A stretch of 64,000 bases of DNA from Patescibacteria group bacterium (GTDB lineage Bacteria; Patescibacteriota; Minisyncoccia; Phycocordibacterales; JBBTRF01), in NCBI GenBank assembly GCA_038065315.1, contig JBBTRF010000002.1, positions 12,021 through 76,020 of the forward strand, given 5' to 3'. Shown one piece after another: positions 15,559-38,837 of this stretch; position 1 is the first letter of the stretch, and the number at the start of each line of letters is the position of its first letter. The position numbers and the translations under genes were made by a program. The notes beneath the pieces were generated by a model. It did not search any database. It worked only from the letters and a program-made list of their open reading frames with translations, and was not told where the DNA came from.

Positions 15559-15582
15559 CGGAATAGCACAGGATACATTCAC

Positions 15583-17004
15583 ATGAAACTCACGCTAAAG
15601 AATTTTTTCAAAACATATCGCTGGGAGACCATCATTTTTGGTGTCGCTCTCGCGTTACGTCTCGTGCTATTTTTTGTGAACTTACAACACAATCAATACG
15701 CCTTGATCCCGACGATCCACGCCGACGATGGTTGGTATGAATTGAGTCAAAGTGCTTTGCGACAACACGGATTTCTTGGGGAAGTGGACCCGCCTTTCCG
15801 TGCCAACCCGCTACGACCACCGCTGTGGCCGTACCTCATCGCGCTCTTCGCCTTCGTATTCCAGAGTTACTGGGCAGTGGTTTTCATTGAGTTGATCGCC
15901 AGTGCTTGTATCCCGGTGTTCGGCTACCGACTCTGTCGGCAGGTCTTTTTGGGCAGTTTTTTGGCTGACGCCGATCGTGTCGCGAAATGGGTAAGCGTAG
16001 CGATGGTCGTTTCGCCATACCCCGTACTTCTTTCGTTTCTTTTGTATTCGGAAACGTGCTTCACTTTCTTCCTTCTTCTCGGACTTATTTTCTTGTTCCG
16101 ATTTTTCAAGGAGCAGAGTTGGCGTATGCTCGTCTGGTCGGCAGTGTTCCTCGGCTTGGCGACCTTGGTGAAGCCGACCATTCAGTATGTGCCGATCCTC
16201 GTGCCGCTTTTCATGCTCTGGTATTTTTGGCAGACGATGACGAAAAAGATAATTTGGCAGATGCTCGCCTTCGTCCTTGTCTTCATGGCAATCTTGATGC
16301 CATGGCTGGTACGAAACCGGGTTGAATTCGGCGTTTGGGGGATGAGTGCTCAGCCGGCATTCAACCTCGCGGTGTATCTGGCCCCGACTGTTCTGTCGAT
16401 CGACAACCGCACGAATTTTCAGACTGAGCTCGATGCTATTAGAAAGCGACCAGGGTTTGATGAAAACGGTATCACTTTGGTGACCAGCAAAACGTACGCC
16501 TCTGAAGCTCTTGCGACCATCTTCCAACATAAAACCGCCCTTGTACAATCTGTGGCGAACACGACCATCACCTTTTTCACCCACGACGGCATGCTCACTA
16601 TTTTGCAATATTCTGGAATTGTCGTGCCCAACATTCTCACCAAGCCTGCCTTGTGGCTGCTACTGCATGAGCCGCTGACCTTGCTGAAGGCAATCAGCCA
16701 CTACGCATTCTCTCCGGCGATCCTCATTCTCATCTTCCGCATTCTTTGGATAGTGATCACGGTATTCTTTCTCCGGGGCGCATATTCCGCGCTTGCACAA
16801 AAAGACAAAAACGGGAACCGCTCAGTCGCAGACAAAAAGCTCCTCGTACTTGCACTTTGTATCGTCCTGTACTTCATGGCCACCACCTCGATCAACGGAC
16901 TCGGCGTGAATGCCCGTTTTCGCGTACCGGTGGAGGTGTTCATCTTCATGTTCTCGTTCTATGGACTTTTTGAGGCAAGGCGTACTATACTGTCGAAACT
17001 ATGA
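15583..17004 (+). CDS. GT-C fold membrane glycosyltransferase (ArnT/PMT, GT39/GT83-like)
   Basis: 473 aa, about 11-13 TM helices, DDGWY-like extracytoplasmic loop motif near N-terminus. Confidence 0.55.
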   Translation: MKLTLKNFFKTYRWETIIFGVALALRLVLFFVNLQHNQYALIPTIHADDGWYELSQSALRQHGFLGEVDPPFRANPLRPPLWPYLIALFAFVFQSYWAVVFIELIASACIPVFGYRLCRQVFLGSFLADADRVAKWVSVAMVVSPYPVLLSFLLYSETCFTFFLLLGLIFLFRFFKEQSWRMLVWSAVFLGLATLVKPTIQYVPILVPLFMLWYFWQTMTKKIIWQMLAFVLVFMAILMPWLVRNRVEFGVWGMSAQPAFNLAVYLAPTVLSIDNRTNFQTELDAIRKRPGFDENGITLVTSKTYASEALATIFQHKTALVQSVANTTITFFTHDGMLTILQYSGIVVPNILTKPALWLLLHEPLTLLKAISHYAFSPAILILIFRILWIVITVFFLRGAYSALAQKDKNGNRSVADKKLLVLALCIVLYFMATTSINGLGVNARFRVPVEVFIFMFSFYGLFEARRTILSKL

Positions 17005-34543: not shown

Positions 34544-36802
34544 ATGCCCATGAATACTGAATATATTGCAAAATGGGTGGCTCGCGCAGGCATGTTCCTG
34601 CTTCTGATCGTACCTTTCGTCGTGGCCGATGGCATGCTCTTCCCGAATTCCTTCTTTCCATTTATCACCGGCAAAGCTTTCGTTTTTCGTTTTTTGGTGG
34701 AAGTGATTCTTGCGGCATGGCTCGTCCTCGCCTTTGTCGATGAACAATATCGCCCGCGCTCGTCCTGGATCGCGCGGGCTGTCGGCGTCTTCATCCTCGT
34801 CATGTTCATTGCCGACCTCGGCAGTGAAAATCCGTTCAAAAGTTTCTGGTCCAACTTCGAGCGCATGGAAGGCTTCGTCACGCTCATTCACCTCGGCGCC
34901 CTTTTCCTTGTGGCCGGTTCGCTGCTCAAAACCGAGGCTTTGTGGAACCGTTTCTGGCAGAGCTCTCTCGTGGCGAGCGTGCTCATGGCGGCGTACGGCC
35001 TGTTTCAGCTCGAGGGTTGGGCGTTGATTCATCAGGGCAGTACGCGCCTCGATGCGTCACTTGGTAATTCCGCCTATCTCGCGGCCTACATGATTTTCCA
35101 CGTGTTCATTGCGCTTTTCCTCTTGCTTCGCTACGTAAAAAAATACGCCGGCACTTCTCAGTGGTCGGCTTGGTTGCCTTCGCTCTATGGTGCAGCTGCC
35201 TTGCTCGACCTCACCGTCCTATATCACACCGCTACTCGTGGCGCCCTCATCGGTACCGCTCTTGGACTTACAGTGATCGCTGTTGGCTTGGCGGCTTTTG
35301 AAAAGGAACAGAAAGTCCTCCGCAATATCGGTATTGGTGCGCTCATTGCGATTGTGTTGGGTATCAGCGCCCTCTTCATTGGCAAAAATAGCGATTTCGT
35401 GAAGAAGAGCGAAGTACTTTCGCGTTTCAGCAGCTTGGCGACCTTCGATGTTTCCTCGATCGCGCAGGGCGAAGGGAAGTCCCGATTCAAGATTTGGAAT
35501 ATGGCCTGGGAAGGCGTGAAGGAGCGTCCGATTCTTGGTTGGGGACAGGAGAGTTTTAATTACCTTTTCTACAAACACTACTCCCCGGAGATGTATGACC
35601 AAGAGCCATGGTTCGACCGTGCGCACAATGTGTTTCTCGATTGGCTGGTGGCCGGCGGCTTTCTTGGCTTGCTATCATATCTCGCGATATTTGCTGCGCT
35701 CATTACGCTGGTCTGGAAAAAGCACATGCCATTCAGCTTGCCGGAACGGCTGACACTCATAGCTTTGGTGGTCGCATATTTTATCCACAATATTTTCGTG
35801 TTTGATCAGCTCGTGAGCTACCTCTACTTCTTCCTCGTGCTCGCGTACATCCACGCGCTGTATCATCACACTCGCGAGGGGCAGGGCGAGACGAAGGTCG
35901 GGATCTGGTGGAAGGCACATCGCCAAACGCTCGAAGATGCCGGCGTGCCTGTGGTGCTCGTACTGTTTGTTGCGGTCGTCTGGGCGGTGAATTGGAGCGG
36001 CTTCGCGCAGGCGACTCGTCTCATCGATGCCATCTCTCCACAAAAAGAGGGGTTGGCAAAAAATATCGAAATGTTTAAGGATGTTCTCGACCGTCGATCG
36101 ATGGGGTTGTATGAATCTCGCGAACGCCTTGCTGAAATAGCGGTGCAGATGAGCCGTGCAAATGTCGATCAGCTGCAGAAGACAGAAGTATTCAATTTGG
36201 CATATGCTGAACTCAAGAAGCAGCTCGAAGAGACTCCAAATGATGTGCGCTATCTCTACTTCGTGTCTTCTTTCTTGTCGTCGTACCAGCGATATTCAGA
36301 GGCTTTGCCACACGCGCTAAAAGCGGTGGAATTGTCGCCAAAGAAACAGATGTTGTTGATAAATCTCGGCGGTATTTATCTCAATATCGGGCAGGTAAAG
36401 GAAGCCTTGGCGGCATACAAGACGGCGTTCGACCTTGCTCCAAAATATGAAGAAGCACGATTGTCGTATGCGGTCGCAGCGGTATATGCAGGTGACGAGG
36501 CGTTGCAGAAACAGTTGCTCGAGCCGGTATACGGCACAACGCTCATGACTGATCAACGTTTCTTGCAGGCATATGTTAATACAAAACAGCCGCAAAAGGC
36601 GATTCGTGCGCTCAGCGCGTTGGTTGCAGCTACGGTGCCAGATGATTTGCAACTTCGGCTCAAGCTCGCTTCGTTGTATTTGCAGACTGGCGACAAGGCC
36701 GGAGCGATTGTCCAGGTGAAAAGGGCTGGCGAACTGCATCCGGAATTTGCTCAGGAAGTGCCGGCGTATTTGAAGGAGATTGCGAACTACAAAGGGAATT
36801 AG
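34544..36802 (+). CDS. O-antigen-ligase-like (Wzy_C) membrane protein fused to C-terminal TPR repeats
   Basis: 752 aa; about 10-12 TM N-half with ligase-type large periplasmic loop; C-terminal about 250 aa with TPR-like A/L/Y periodicity. Confidence 0.6.
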   Translation: MPMNTEYIAKWVARAGMFLLLIVPFVVADGMLFPNSFFPFITGKAFVFRFLVEVILAAWLVLAFVDEQYRPRSSWIARAVGVFILVMFIADLGSENPFKSFWSNFERMEGFVTLIHLGALFLVAGSLLKTEALWNRFWQSSLVASVLMAAYGLFQLEGWALIHQGSTRLDASLGNSAYLAAYMIFHVFIALFLLLRYVKKYAGTSQWSAWLPSLYGAAALLDLTVLYHTATRGALIGTALGLTVIAVGLAAFEKEQKVLRNIGIGALIAIVLGISALFIGKNSDFVKKSEVLSRFSSLATFDVSSIAQGEGKSRFKIWNMAWEGVKERPILGWGQESFNYLFYKHYSPEMYDQEPWFDRAHNVFLDWLVAGGFLGLLSYLAIFAALITLVWKKHMPFSLPERLTLIALVVAYFIHNIFVFDQLVSYLYFFLVLAYIHALYHHTREGQGETKVGIWWKAHRQTLEDAGVPVVLVLFVAVVWAVNWSGFAQATRLIDAISPQKEGLAKNIEMFKDVLDRRSMGLYESRERLAEIAVQMSRANVDQLQKTEVFNLAYAELKKQLEETPNDVRYLYFVSSFLSSYQRYSEALPHALKAVELSPKKQMLLINLGGIYLNIGQVKEALAAYKTAFDLAPKYEEARLSYAVAAVYAGDEALQKQLLEPVYGTTLMTDQRFLQAYVNTKQPQKAIRALSALVAATVPDDLQLRLKLASLYLQTGDKAGAIVQVKRAGELHPEFAQEVPAYLKEIANYKGN

Positions 36803-36819
36803 GCGGTCGCTACAGGTGG

Positions 36820-36847
36820 TTGCACCCGCCGAGGCCGGTGGTATAAT
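36820..36847 (+). promoter_or_regulatory. sigma70-like promoter (TTGCAC-16-TATAAT)
   Basis: TTGCAC 36820-36825, TATAAT 36842-36847. Confidence 0.4.
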
Positions 36848-36853
36848 AGACAG

Positions 36854-36929
36854 GTGAGTGACTGACAACCTGTTGGACACCCAAAAAATGTATACGTGAG
36901 TCCCCGCCTTGGCGGGGTTTCGCGTTTTT
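36854..36929 (+). ncRNA. candidate small RNA or attenuator leader (promoter + about 75 nt + intrinsic terminator) upstream of murB
   Basis: predicted TSS about 36854; internal hairpin ACAGGT-N12-ACCTGT (36850-36873); terminator hairpin CCCCGCC-TT-GGCGGGG 36902-36917 followed by TTTCGCGTTTTT. Confidence 0.35.
36902..36929 (+). terminator. Rho-independent terminator
   Basis: 7-bp GC stem CCCCGCC/GGCGGGG, 2-nt loop, U-tract. Confidence 0.6.
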
Positions 36930-37082
36930 GGCCGGCGCGGTATGATAGGAGGGCGGGCCTTTCTCGGCCTGTTGTGTCCGGCGATGGTGAGCGGCTGCAC
37001 TCACATAATACATTACATTTGGAGCCGACTCCGCTCACCATCACTCGACGCAACGTATCTACCGCCCACGTTTTATTCTGAC

Positions 37083-38141
37083 ATGATCGCGATCCAAAAA
37101 AACGTTCCTTTGAGCAGCCTGACAACGTTTCGCGTTGGCGGTGACGCTGCATATTTCTGTGAAGTGCGGACGCCGGTGGAGCTTGCGGAAGCATCGGCGC
37201 TGTTTGTGAAGAACCGGCAAACGTATGGCAGTTTTTTCATCCTCGGCGAAGGTTCGAATACGCTCGCACTCGACGGTGGCTATGCTGGTCTCGCGGTCCG
37301 CGTGCTGATCAAGGGCGTGAAGTGGAAAGAGATTGTCGATGCTGCTGCGTGCGACAAGGTGGAGGTGGTGTCCGGCGGCGGGGAGCACTGGGATGATCTT
37401 GTTGGACTCACTGTGGGCAAGGGCTATTATGGCTTGGAAAATTTGTCGGGGATTCCTGGGACGGTCGGTGCCGCGCCAGTACAAAATATCGGCGCGTATG
37501 GTGCGGAGGTGAAGGATTGCATTTCTTTTGTTGAAGCGTTTCACTTTGAGACCGGTGAGACGCGGATGTTTACGCCCGAAGAGTGCTGTTTCGGGTATCG
37601 GGACAGTTTTTTCAAGAGTGTTGAGGGCCGCTTGTGGGTGATCACGAAGGTAGGTTTTTTGCTCGACAAAAAAGGCCGCGTCAATATTGGCTACAAGGAT
37701 CTGAAGACGCGATTTACTGAGCGATATTCGAGCCAAGTGTCGCTCGCGGAGGTGCGCGATGCTGTTTTGGAGATTCGCAAGCAAAAGTTGCCGGATATTT
37801 CGCTGCTTGGTACGGCCGGTTCGTTTTTCAAAAATCCAATCATCCGCGCGGAGCTGTACAAGGAGCTGCAGGAGGAGTATCCGGCCATGCCGGGCTTTGT
37901 GGAGAGTGATGGGCGAGTGAAAGTGCCGCTGGCGTGGGTGCTCGACAACGTGTGTGGGCTGAAGGGATGGAAAAATGCGAATGGCCGCGTCGGACTCTAC
38001 GAAAAGCAGCCGCTCGCGCTGGTGAATTTTGGCGGCGCGACGGCTGCCGAAGTGGCCGACGCGGCCGAAATGGTCGCCCTGGCCGTGAAAGAGAAGACCG
38101 GTATCGAGATCGAGTGGGAAGTGCAAAAGCTTGGGGCGTAG
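37083..38141 (+). CDS. murB: UDP-N-acetylenolpyruvoylglucosamine reductase
   Basis: LSSLTTFRVGGDAAYF FAD-binding N-terminus, MurB C-terminal domain; start MIAIQK at 37083 (TTG-initiated ORF extension from 36909 not homologous). Confidence 0.75.
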   Translation: MIAIQKNVPLSSLTTFRVGGDAAYFCEVRTPVELAEASALFVKNRQTYGSFFILGEGSNTLALDGGYAGLAVRVLIKGVKWKEIVDAAACDKVEVVSGGGEHWDDLVGLTVGKGYYGLENLSGIPGTVGAAPVQNIGAYGAEVKDCISFVEAFHFETGETRMFTPEECCFGYRDSFFKSVEGRLWVITKVGFLLDKKGRVNIGYKDLKTRFTERYSSQVSLAEVRDAVLEIRKQKLPDISLLGTAGSFFKNPIIRAELYKELQEEYPAMPGFVESDGRVKVPLAWVLDNVCGLKGWKNANGRVGLYEKQPLALVNFGGATAAEVADAAEMVALAVKEKTGIEIEWEVQKLGA

Positions 38142-38313
38142 TCTTCGGTACTTCGTCGTCAGGTGCTATCAACAAGTTGCTATTGATTTTTTATATGTTA
38201 GGTGTACGCTGATAAGTAGGTTTTTCATCCAAGGTTTCCGGCGCTGTTCGCCTCGAGCGAATTAAGCAGTGCTTGAAGGAGGCTGAAGGTGATGAACAAC
38301 GAAAGGCACACCA

Positions 38314-38697
38314 GTGAAAGTCAATCAGTGGACATTGGGCATCGCGGCTGCAGGCGTCATCGCCTTCGCCACGCTCTGCTCGATCGCAGGCAAGTCTGAT
38401 CCGCCGGCACAAGTTGTCATCGGTCAGTCATCGCAAACGGAAATCATCGCGCAGTCCGACACCCTGGCCGAGGACATCTCGCCGCCACGCGTCGCTGTTG
38501 CCATCCAAAACGACGCCGTTGGCACCATCGCCAAGACCGACTCGAGCGCGTTCACTGAGAAGGAGGTGGTTGTCTTCGGACCGAAACTTGCCGGTGGTGT
38601 CGTCATTTCCAGCTTCGGCACCGCCTACTACGCCACTGTCGCGCACCTACATCCGCGCGTCTTGGCGATCCCGACTGCCGCCGCCGTGGTCGTCTAG
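38314..38697 (+). CDS. small secreted/lipoprotein-like hypothetical protein
   Basis: 127 aa, GTG start, signal-peptide-like N-terminus; Ala/Val/Thr-rich; weak coding evidence. Confidence 0.25.
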   Translation: MKVNQWTLGIAAAGVIAFATLCSIAGKSDPPAQVVIGQSSQTEIIAQSDTLAEDISPPRVAVAIQNDAVGTIAKTDSSAFTEKEVVVFGPKLAGGVVISSFGTAYYATVAHLHPRVLAIPTAAAVVV

Positions 38698-38837
38698 GTT
38701 TACAAGTTCACAGAAGTCATCTGAGCCTCGCGCTCAGGACCCCCCCGTACGGCTCACGCTGTGCGGGGCGGTTTTCTTTCATTTTTTCACGGAAAACCTA
38801 CCGAAAAAGGCCTCAATATGCTACTATTGTCCGACCA

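Follow-up and report, generated by a model that had tools for sequence, protein, structure and literature searches.

A predicted small RNA gene and a conserved murB leader hairpin that appear to have co-evolved to base-pair in Patescibacteria

The interval upstream of murB was analysed in a 64,000-nucleotide (nt) stretch of DNA from a Patescibacteria group bacterium (GenBank assembly GCA_038065315.1, contig JBBTRF010000002.1, positions 12,021 to 76,020 of the forward strand), the whole of which is called the window and numbered from its first letter. The interval is flanked on the 5' side by a gene for a 752-aa O-antigen-ligase (Wzy_C) and TPR protein, which ends at 36802, and on the 3' side by murB, with secA further downstream. 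Two RNA elements were recognised in it, both on the murB strand (Table 1): a previously undescribed, free-standing RNA gene with a predicted small RNA (sRNA) product of ~76 nt, and a conserved structured RNA of ~85 nt, predicted to lie at the 5' end of the murB mRNA. An initial annotation of the interval had described a TTGCAC-16-TATAAT promoter, a GC hairpin with a U-tract at 36902–36929 and a perfect 12-bp inverted repeat with a 36-nt loop, 40 nt before the murB ATG, and all three were present as described. It had missed the central point, which is that the sRNA and the apical loop of the leader are complementary and, as comparison of relatives shows, have evolved together so as to keep pairing throughout a group of uncultured, ultra-small bacteria.

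Related murB loci were gathered by MurB similarity, which gave at least 12 genome loci and at least 80 metagenome loci of Parcubacteria type. The MurB relatives were metagenome-assembled genomes labelled Parcubacteria or Candidatus Taylorbacteria, with some labelled Saccharibacteria by an automated pipeline, and all belonged to the Candidate Phyla Radiation (CPR). The taxonomic range of the two RNAs is that of this sample, and with gathering based on MurB, other sRNA targets or leaders before other genes were detectable only inside the 64-kb window. The closest relatives aligned were L001 (MurB 88% identical) and L002 (MurB 74% identical). Two blocks of ~80 nt were 98–100% identical between the window and these loci (block 1 at ~36852–36932, block 2 at ~36970–37049; the sRNA block was 100% identical to L002 over 81 nt), and the flanks (end of the upstream gene, spacers and start of murB) diverged. 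Block 1 was traced among relatives by pattern search and then by covariance model; the covariance models for the murB leader (R1) and the sRNA (R2) were run on the window and on the related loci.

Conservation in relatives and a scan against Rfam had been proposed as checks in the initial annotation. Both blocks were found to be kept, in 25 sRNA loci and ~35 leader loci, and the scan returned no Rfam 15 family at the gathering threshold, either in the whole window or in 20 related loci. No tRNA or tmRNA match was obtained. An E-value scan of 36600–37300 gave sub-threshold, terminator-driven matches only (rnk leader, RsmY and mir-667). The Pseudomonas rnk leader (RF01772, 23 bits against a gathering cut-off of 55) and RsmY (RF00195, 20 bits against 57) share with the sRNA only a GC-rich terminator hairpin and U-tract; the aligned part was the terminator alone, and none of the GGA motifs of RsmY was meaningfully aligned with the sRNA.

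The R2 model matched the window once (36851–36932, 76 bits) and matched 25 related loci. Of 24 related sRNA genes, 23 have a TTGNNN −35 box at the same distance as in the window, TTGACN and TTGCAN being the common forms. Their −10 box is TATAAT, TATACT or TATAGT, often with TG, and since it ends 6–7 nt before an invariant GUGAGU, this GUGAGU was taken as the predicted 5' end of the sRNA. The upstream gene of L001 and of L002 has its stop codon within the sRNA −10 box. The core of the terminator is a GC hairpin (CCCCGCC-TT-GGCGGGG, 36902–36917) followed by a tail, TTTCGCGTTTTT, to 36929; the U-tract is interrupted in the window (UUUCGCGUUUUU), YUUUGCGUUU is conserved in the tail among relatives (UUUGCGUU, UUUGCGUUU), and compensatory changes were seen in 5 of 8 stem pairs. 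Relative to shuffled sequences, the fold z-score was −3.5 for 36855–36932 and −4.2 for the whole region 36855–37090. A scan for consensus promoters and terminators listed neither signal (the −35 box matches at 3 of 6 positions and the U-tract is interrupted), and promoter-like sites in the region numbered 4 against 3.0 expected; alone the two signals are not beyond chance, and they were taken as real because they are conserved among relatives.

The layout of the sRNA gene varied independently of murB. Its own −35/−10 promoter and terminator are kept in the window and 24 relatives, also where the gene is inverted or displaced. Tandem arrangement on the murB strand is the commonest layout (21 of 25 loci); L011, L027 and L062/L063 (3–4 lineages) carry the sRNA on the strand opposite murB. 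The distance between sRNA and leader ranges from 11 to 908 nt across loci (34 nt in the window; 11–60 nt in the window and most same-strand relatives), and in L023 a 316-aa open reading frame (ORF) on the other strand separates them. The sRNA was absent from the available DNA of eight leader-bearing loci (L006, L015, L021, L030, L054, L058, L064 and L070), most of which are limited by contig ends; a weak R2 match in L021 was judged false.

Within the sRNA, a minimum-free-energy (MFE) hairpin directly follows GUGAGU in most of 24 sRNAs, with neither sequence nor length conserved. Consensus folding (RNAalifold) of a MAFFT alignment of 22 sRNAs recovered the terminator helix only, with no conserved competing helix overlapping the terminator; the 5' hairpin was missed because its length is too variable to align. 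Two further features of the window sRNA were noted. Only in the window (36896–36901), L001 and L002 does a second GUGAGU lie at the foot of the terminator; GUAAG or CAAAG takes its place in other lineages. Along with AAUGUAU, this GUGAGU could form an alternative contiguous duplex with leader ACUCAC-AUA-AUACAUU, for which the base of the terminator would have to open. The A-run of segment B (36880–36888) can pair with the terminator U-tract (36925–36929) in the MFE fold, so that the terminator looks bidirectional and segment B of the free sRNA may be partly hidden in this lineage.

The R1 model gave a single plus-strand match in the window and matched ~35 loci, each directly upstream of murB and on the murB strand, with scores of 75–90 bits on the plus strand against 20–35 bits on the minus strand. 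For consensus folding, 27 upstream regions were aligned with MAFFT and not fitted to structure. RNAalifold returned one long hairpin, in which P1 and P2 contribute 18 pairs, P3 2 bp and an apical ACUCAC/UUGGAG helix 5 bp. Standard pairs filled 94.9% of cells, 15 of 25 pairs were changed on both sides, and none of 500 column shuffles reached any of five leader pairing measures; sliding the partners by 1–3 columns lowered pairing to 35–46%. The P2 arms covary (GGUGAGCGG/CCGCUCACC, GGUUAACGG/CCGUUAACC, GGCCGGCGG/CCGCCGGCY and GGCGACGG/CCGUCGCC). G-U pairs are frequent in the hairpin, and this, together with the strand asymmetry of R1, argues for selection on an RNA of the murB strand and not on a DNA palindrome. 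The 12-bp repeat of the initial annotation is real, then, as stem P2 of the larger hairpin, and does not stand as a separate feature. Mean folding energy of the leader hairpin was about −38 kcal/mol. ACUCAC at A' was invariant in the 27 aligned leaders, as were UUGGAGC and several nucleotides of internal loops; UUGGAGC is more constant than pairing would demand, which leaves room for a further constraint (protein, ligand or tertiary structure).

A TATAAT/TATACT-like −10 box is found in relatives at the place of the murB box of the window and ends ~5–10 nt before P1 in nearly all of 33 leader loci, which places the hairpin at or near the predicted 5' end of the murB mRNA. The window lineage has an extra small hairpin (36953–36971, GGGCGGGCC..GGCCUG) between this box and P1, and L001 has a longer, different insert at the same place (2821–2867 of that locus); in most other relatives P1 begins within a few nt of the predicted transcription start. 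The murB start lies 0–8 nt past P1 in about half of the loci and 21–49 nt downstream in the window and its closest relatives. In L018, L019 and L033 a Shine-Dalgarno sequence (GGAGG/GGGGG) is found inside the 3' strand of P1.

The leader hairpin contains an ATG, at 36984, that shares the murB frame and is followed by no stop codon up to 37083; the mechanical ORF runs from 36909. A small peptide or N-terminal extension of MurB from this ATG was rejected: relatives have stops and non-triplet loop indels, and the arms covary as RNA. The ATG is a trap for gene callers, which could extend murB by at least 33 codons over the RNA element. UUGGAG as the Shine-Dalgarno sequence of a leader peptide was likewise rejected, no start codon following it in any lineage.

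Table 1. Positions of the two predicted RNAs, their signals and pairing segments, and murB in the window.
Feature	Position	Strand	Description
sRNA promoter, −35 box	36820–36825	+	TTGCAC, read directly
sRNA promoter, extended −10 box	36839–36847	+	TGgTATAAT; TG at 36839–40, TATAAT at 36842–36847; spacer 16 nt
sRNA gene	36854–36929	+	~76 nt, from predicted GUGAGU start to end of U-tract; both ends are predictions
sRNA segment A	36854–36861	+	GUGAGUGA; 5'-terminal pairing segment, complementary to leader 36997–37004
sRNA 5' hairpin	36862–36879	+	Variable sequence; weak in the window lineage
sRNA segment B	36880–36893	+	CCCAAAAAAUGUAU; single-stranded A-rich pairing segment, covaries with leader loop
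sRNA intrinsic terminator	36895–36929	+	Stem CGUGAGU-CCCCGC/GCGGGG-UUUCGCG, loop CUUG, then U5
murB promoter, −10 box	36941–36946	+	TATGAT
murB 5'-untranslated-region hairpin	36967–37055	+	R1 match, 80 bits
Hairpin stem P1	36972–36984/37043–37053	+	Lower stem
Stem P2, 5' arm	36983–36994	+	GATGGTGAGCGG; arm of perfect 12-bp inverted repeat
Leader apical region	36995–37030	+	36-nt loop between repeat arms
Leader segment A'	36997–37004	+	GCACUCAC; pairs with sRNA nt 1–8, predicted paired with UUGGAG in free leader
Leader segment B'	37008–37022	+	AUACAUUACAUUUGG; apical loop (AUACAUU..UUUGG), pairs with sRNA segment B
Stem P2, 3' arm	37031–37042	+	CCGCTCACCATC; arm of perfect 12-bp inverted repeat
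murB coding sequence	37083–38141	+	352 aa; Pfam MurB_C and FAD_binding_4; N-terminus aligns with relatives from residue 1–2

Complementarity between the two RNAs comprises 8 nt in one segment (helix A) and about 12–18 nt in another (helix B), and the sRNA gene does not overlap the leader. In helix A, nt 1–8 of the sRNA (GUGAGURC; GUGAGUGA in the window) pair with leader GYACUCAC (GCACUCAC), forming 7–8 bp in 24 of 24 genomes. Some genomes have G:C at position 7 and others A:U, and on a neighbour-joining tree of MurB the A:U pair has two separate origins, one in the L009/L023 clade and one in L017. Two further compensatory changes were found in L033, where AUGAGUGU is paired with ACACUCAU, and helix A as a whole showed at least four independent compensatory changes. 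The intermolecular pair at position 7 was Watson-Crick in 23 and G-U in 1 of the 24 genomes; the alternative intramolecular P3 pair (16 C-G, 5 U-A, 4 U-G and 2 unpaired) fitted worse. ACUCAU replaces ACUCAC at the corresponding place in two leaders only, those of L021 (1410–1501) and L033 (278–368). The sRNA 5' end of L033 carries the matching AUGAGU; L021 had no sRNA within the 1.5 kb examined, and a predicted AUGAGUGC-type sRNA is expected elsewhere in that genome.

In helix B, which in the window joins CCCAAAAAAUGUAU (36880–93) to AUACAUU..UUUGG (37008–22) with an RNAduplex energy of −10.1 kcal/mol, loop and sRNA were found in at least eight matching states, among them AUACAUU/AAUGUAU, AGACAU/AUGUCU, AGUCAUU/AAUGACU and AGAUAUUCAUUUU/AAAAUGAAUAUCU, and further UUGAAC/GUUCAA, AGACUUU/AAAGUCU, UCAUUC/GAAUGA and UUACAUUGUAG/CUACAAUGUAA. 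Segment B was delimited by a fixed 3' trim. Mean RNAduplex energy was −13.2 kcal/mol for cognate and −8.8 kcal/mol for non-cognate combinations, and none of 20,000 random re-pairings was as good. When 12 representatives of distinct type were used, the cognate sum was −168 against −102 ± 9.5, with none of 50,000 permutations as good, and the cognate leader was ranked first for 8 of the 12 representative sRNAs. Against shuffled loops the mean z-score of helix B was −3.3.

A motif scan of the window found the murB leader to be the only site with A' followed by B'. One other site holds both motifs, in the reverse order (15573–15593): a membrane-protein-like ORF has ATACATT 3–9 nt before its ATG and ACTCAC just within its coding sequence. 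This site is probably a coincidence, a 7-mer being expected several times by chance in 128 kb. In a whole-window RNAduplex target scan with the full sRNA the murB leader was not prominent, and the structured parts of the sRNA gave long spurious duplexes.

Accessibility differed between the two sets of segments. Mean unpaired probability was 0.68 for B (0.27 in the rest of the sRNA) and 0.53 for B' (0.27 in the rest of the leader), and was 0.34 for A and 0.28 for A', which lie partly in local helices: in L009-type sRNAs GAGU pairs with an internal ACUC, and in all leaders ACUCAC pairs with UUGGAG. These folds suggest an order of contact in which the loop contact B:B' would be made first, followed by a partner exchange forming A:A'; formation of helix A would displace the local ACUCAC/UUGGAG pairing at the hairpin tip. 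No single continuous duplex can form, because A precedes B on both RNAs when each is read 5' to 3'. The predicted complex would instead be a four-way junction in which the lower leader stem and the 5' hairpin of the sRNA meet helices A and B, with a short leader linker (3 nt in the window) joining the far ends of A and B. Comparison supports the two covarying intermolecular helices and the retained intramolecular stems. In such a junction both helices would be present together with the lower stem closed, and the short linker leaves their coexistence in question.

These observations are probably to be read as two separate transcription units that work together, the sRNA acting in trans on the apex of the murB hairpin through two helices. 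One unit would be the sRNA, transcribed from its extended −10 promoter to its own terminator, and the other the murB mRNA, transcribed from its own promoter just upstream of the 5' hairpin. The most likely function of the sRNA, as an RNA linked to its target and acting on it in trans, would be to control murB after transcription by remodelling the apex of the hairpin, and the pairing system points to a dedicated RNA control of cell-wall synthesis. The sRNA is not a simple liberator of the ribosome-binding site (RBS), because the 20-bp P1-P2 stem stays intact, and in many relatives this intact lower stem covers the ribosome-binding region. What is common to all lineages is a 5'-terminal hairpin with an sRNA-targeted apex. 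The most likely and most economical mechanism is that docking of the sRNA would alter the handling of the 5' hairpin by nucleases, with a resulting change in stability or translation of the murB mRNA; candidates would be an RNase III-type enzyme acting on the enlarged double-stranded complex, or an enzyme of 5'-end-dependent decay. For the window lineage, in which murB starts 27 nt past the hairpin, repression by destabilisation is very slightly favoured over the opposite outcome, and processing-dependent activation is plausible where P1 buries the start region (L008, L018, L019, L023 and L033).

A stronger form of this mechanism was also considered, and is judged unlikely. The pair would be an obligatory two-piece RNA switch, in which GAGU:ACUC of the sRNA and CUC:GAG of the leader swap partners to form the four-way junction, the junction would be the substrate of a nuclease or the site of a protein or ligand, and lineages with a buried start would be silent for murB without the sRNA. 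Were this so, one small RNA would gate cell-wall synthesis in genome-reduced, host-dependent bacteria, and the system would be the first riboregulator defined in the CPR and a natural, permuted CopA/CopT-like junction acting in trans on a chromosomal gene.

Several points weigh against the trans-acting pair. Transcript ends, abundance and the interaction itself are all inferred from sequence. Helices A and B cross topologically, with just 3 nt between A' and B' in the window. The sRNA does not touch P1, which leaves a simple RBS-freeing mechanism unsupported, and the position of the start codon in the window lineage shows that occlusion is not universal. UUGGAG is invariant even where the sRNA does not pair with GGAG. 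The related sequences are not independent, and the permutation counts of helix B overstate significance on that account, although the MurB tree still shows several independent changes. Finally, with about eight leader loci lacking an sRNA in the available DNA, strict co-occurrence is not supported, most of these loci ending at contig edges.

Four other explanations of the interval were weighed. The initial annotation had offered an sRNA and a transcription attenuator as alternatives for the promoter-terminator unit, and it is the free-standing sRNA that was borne out. An attenuator or riboswitch-like leader would have transcripts stop at 36902–36929 unless an antiterminator formed, and such a reading gains something from the position of most sRNAs upstream of murB on the same strand, 11–60 nt from the leader, and from the interrupted U-tract, which makes some read-through plausible. 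It is excluded as a general mechanism because the sRNA is inverted in L011, L027 and L062/L063, up to 908 nt away, or separated by a gene (L023) in relatives; the leader moreover has a conserved −10 box of its own, no conserved antiterminator was present in the alignment fold and no Rfam riboswitch or leader matched, and the attenuator is judged highly improbable. Action in cis, in which A:A' and B:B' would pair within a read-through transcript and set the fold of the murB leader, the short RNA being a by-product, would suit the tandem, same-strand order of 21 of 25 loci, the spacing of 34 nt in the window and the imperfect terminator tail. It is impossible in the 3–4 inverted lineages and in L023, where the complementarity is also kept, and the strong, conserved promoter and terminator argue for the short RNA as the selected product; as the sole mode it is rated improbable, and it could coexist with action in trans in tandem lineages.

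The hairpin might, alternatively, be mainly a riboswitch, a protein-binding site or a stability element, with the sRNA accessory or unrelated and the complementarity secondary. ACUCAC, UUGGAGC and internal-loop nucleotides are indeed invariant beyond pairing needs, and the hairpin starts where known stabiliser hairpins start, at the 5' end as predicted. Without direct pairing it would be hard to account for covariation in two intermolecular helices that show several independent compensatory changes, and no known riboswitch family matches, for which reasons this explanation is considered very improbable; it is not exclusive of the trans-acting sRNA, as a protein or ligand could act on the sRNA-leader complex. 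That there is nothing special in the interval, the terminator serving the upstream gene only, the TATAAT being a chance occurrence and the 12-bp repeat a DNA operator, is scarcely credible. The terminator is the first after the gene that ends at 36802, and promoter-like matches are not above chance. The sRNA block, however, is found behind varied upstream contexts and in both orientations, and a DNA operator does not fit with arms that covary rather than being conserved, with many G-U pairs, each of them an A-C mismatch when read from the opposite strand, with a loop of varying length, or with the far lower minus-strand score. Transcription of the upstream O-antigen-ligase gene may stop at the sRNA terminator as well, which is compatible with the sRNA being a gene of its own.

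Downstream of murB, the 700-nt gap before secA holds a small ORF (38314–38697, 127 aa) with a signal-peptide-like N-terminus; GGAGG lies upstream, and an ATG at 38293 is an alternative start. The ORF is followed by a good intrinsic terminator (38743–38768).

The sRNA PmaR of Agrobacterium tumefaciens binds the murB 5' untranslated region (5' UTR) and raises the stability of murB mRNA; it has many targets, binds murB weakly in vitro and is not encoded beside murB (PMC6234868). The likeness lies in a trans-acting sRNA on the murB 5' UTR away from the start codon, and in riboregulation tied to peptidoglycan synthesis. The sRNA described here differs in having no similarity of sequence or structure to PmaR, in being murB-linked and seemingly dedicated, and in being supported by covariation and not by experiment.

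For the geometry, the nearest precedent by analogy would be CopA/CopT, which controls replication of plasmid R1 and reportedly forms an extended kissing complex with a four-way junction. CopA is a short, constitutive RNA with its own terminator that docks on the apical loop of its target leader, and double-strand-specific cleavage can follow. Apical-loop docking, two intermolecular helices and persisting lower stems would be common to both systems, as would the four-way junction predicted for the present one. Encoding in cis and full complementarity to the target set CopA apart from the sRNA, which is trans-encoded, beside or inverted to its target, and pairs only by way of two short segments; the ends of the sRNA take the place of the CopA loop, which gives a circularly permuted topology. 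The target of CopA is a plasmid replication gene and that of the sRNA a chromosomal housekeeping gene. DsrA, RprA and ArcZ activate rpoS by anti-antisense opening of a 5'-UTR hairpin and are Hfq-dependent. A long 5'-UTR hairpin over the start region, as in many of the relatives, and a trans-acting sRNA that pairs within it are shared with the murB system. Those sRNAs pair with the RBS-sequestering strand and open the stem, whereas here the apical loop is paired and the lower stem remains intact.

CPR bacteria have tiny genomes and few recognisable transcription factors, and to our knowledge no regulatory small RNAs have been characterised in them; a search of the literature found no small RNA of CPR, Patescibacteria or Parcubacteria and no murB leader motif. 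A base-pairing sRNA on a 5' UTR is a known principle. New are the RNA family, the host group, the tight linkage to a single target and the pairing of an apex at two sites in the same order. The R1 and R2 models could be used to annotate both RNAs across hundreds of genomes. The two-site, same-order pairing is an unusual geometry, and could inform how RNA-RNA recognition evolves without Hfq-type chaperones. For the CPR, the predicted pair offers a concrete and testable case of an essential peptidoglycan gene that would be controlled after transcription; it is drawn from sequence alone, and the covariation between the two RNAs is unusually strong.

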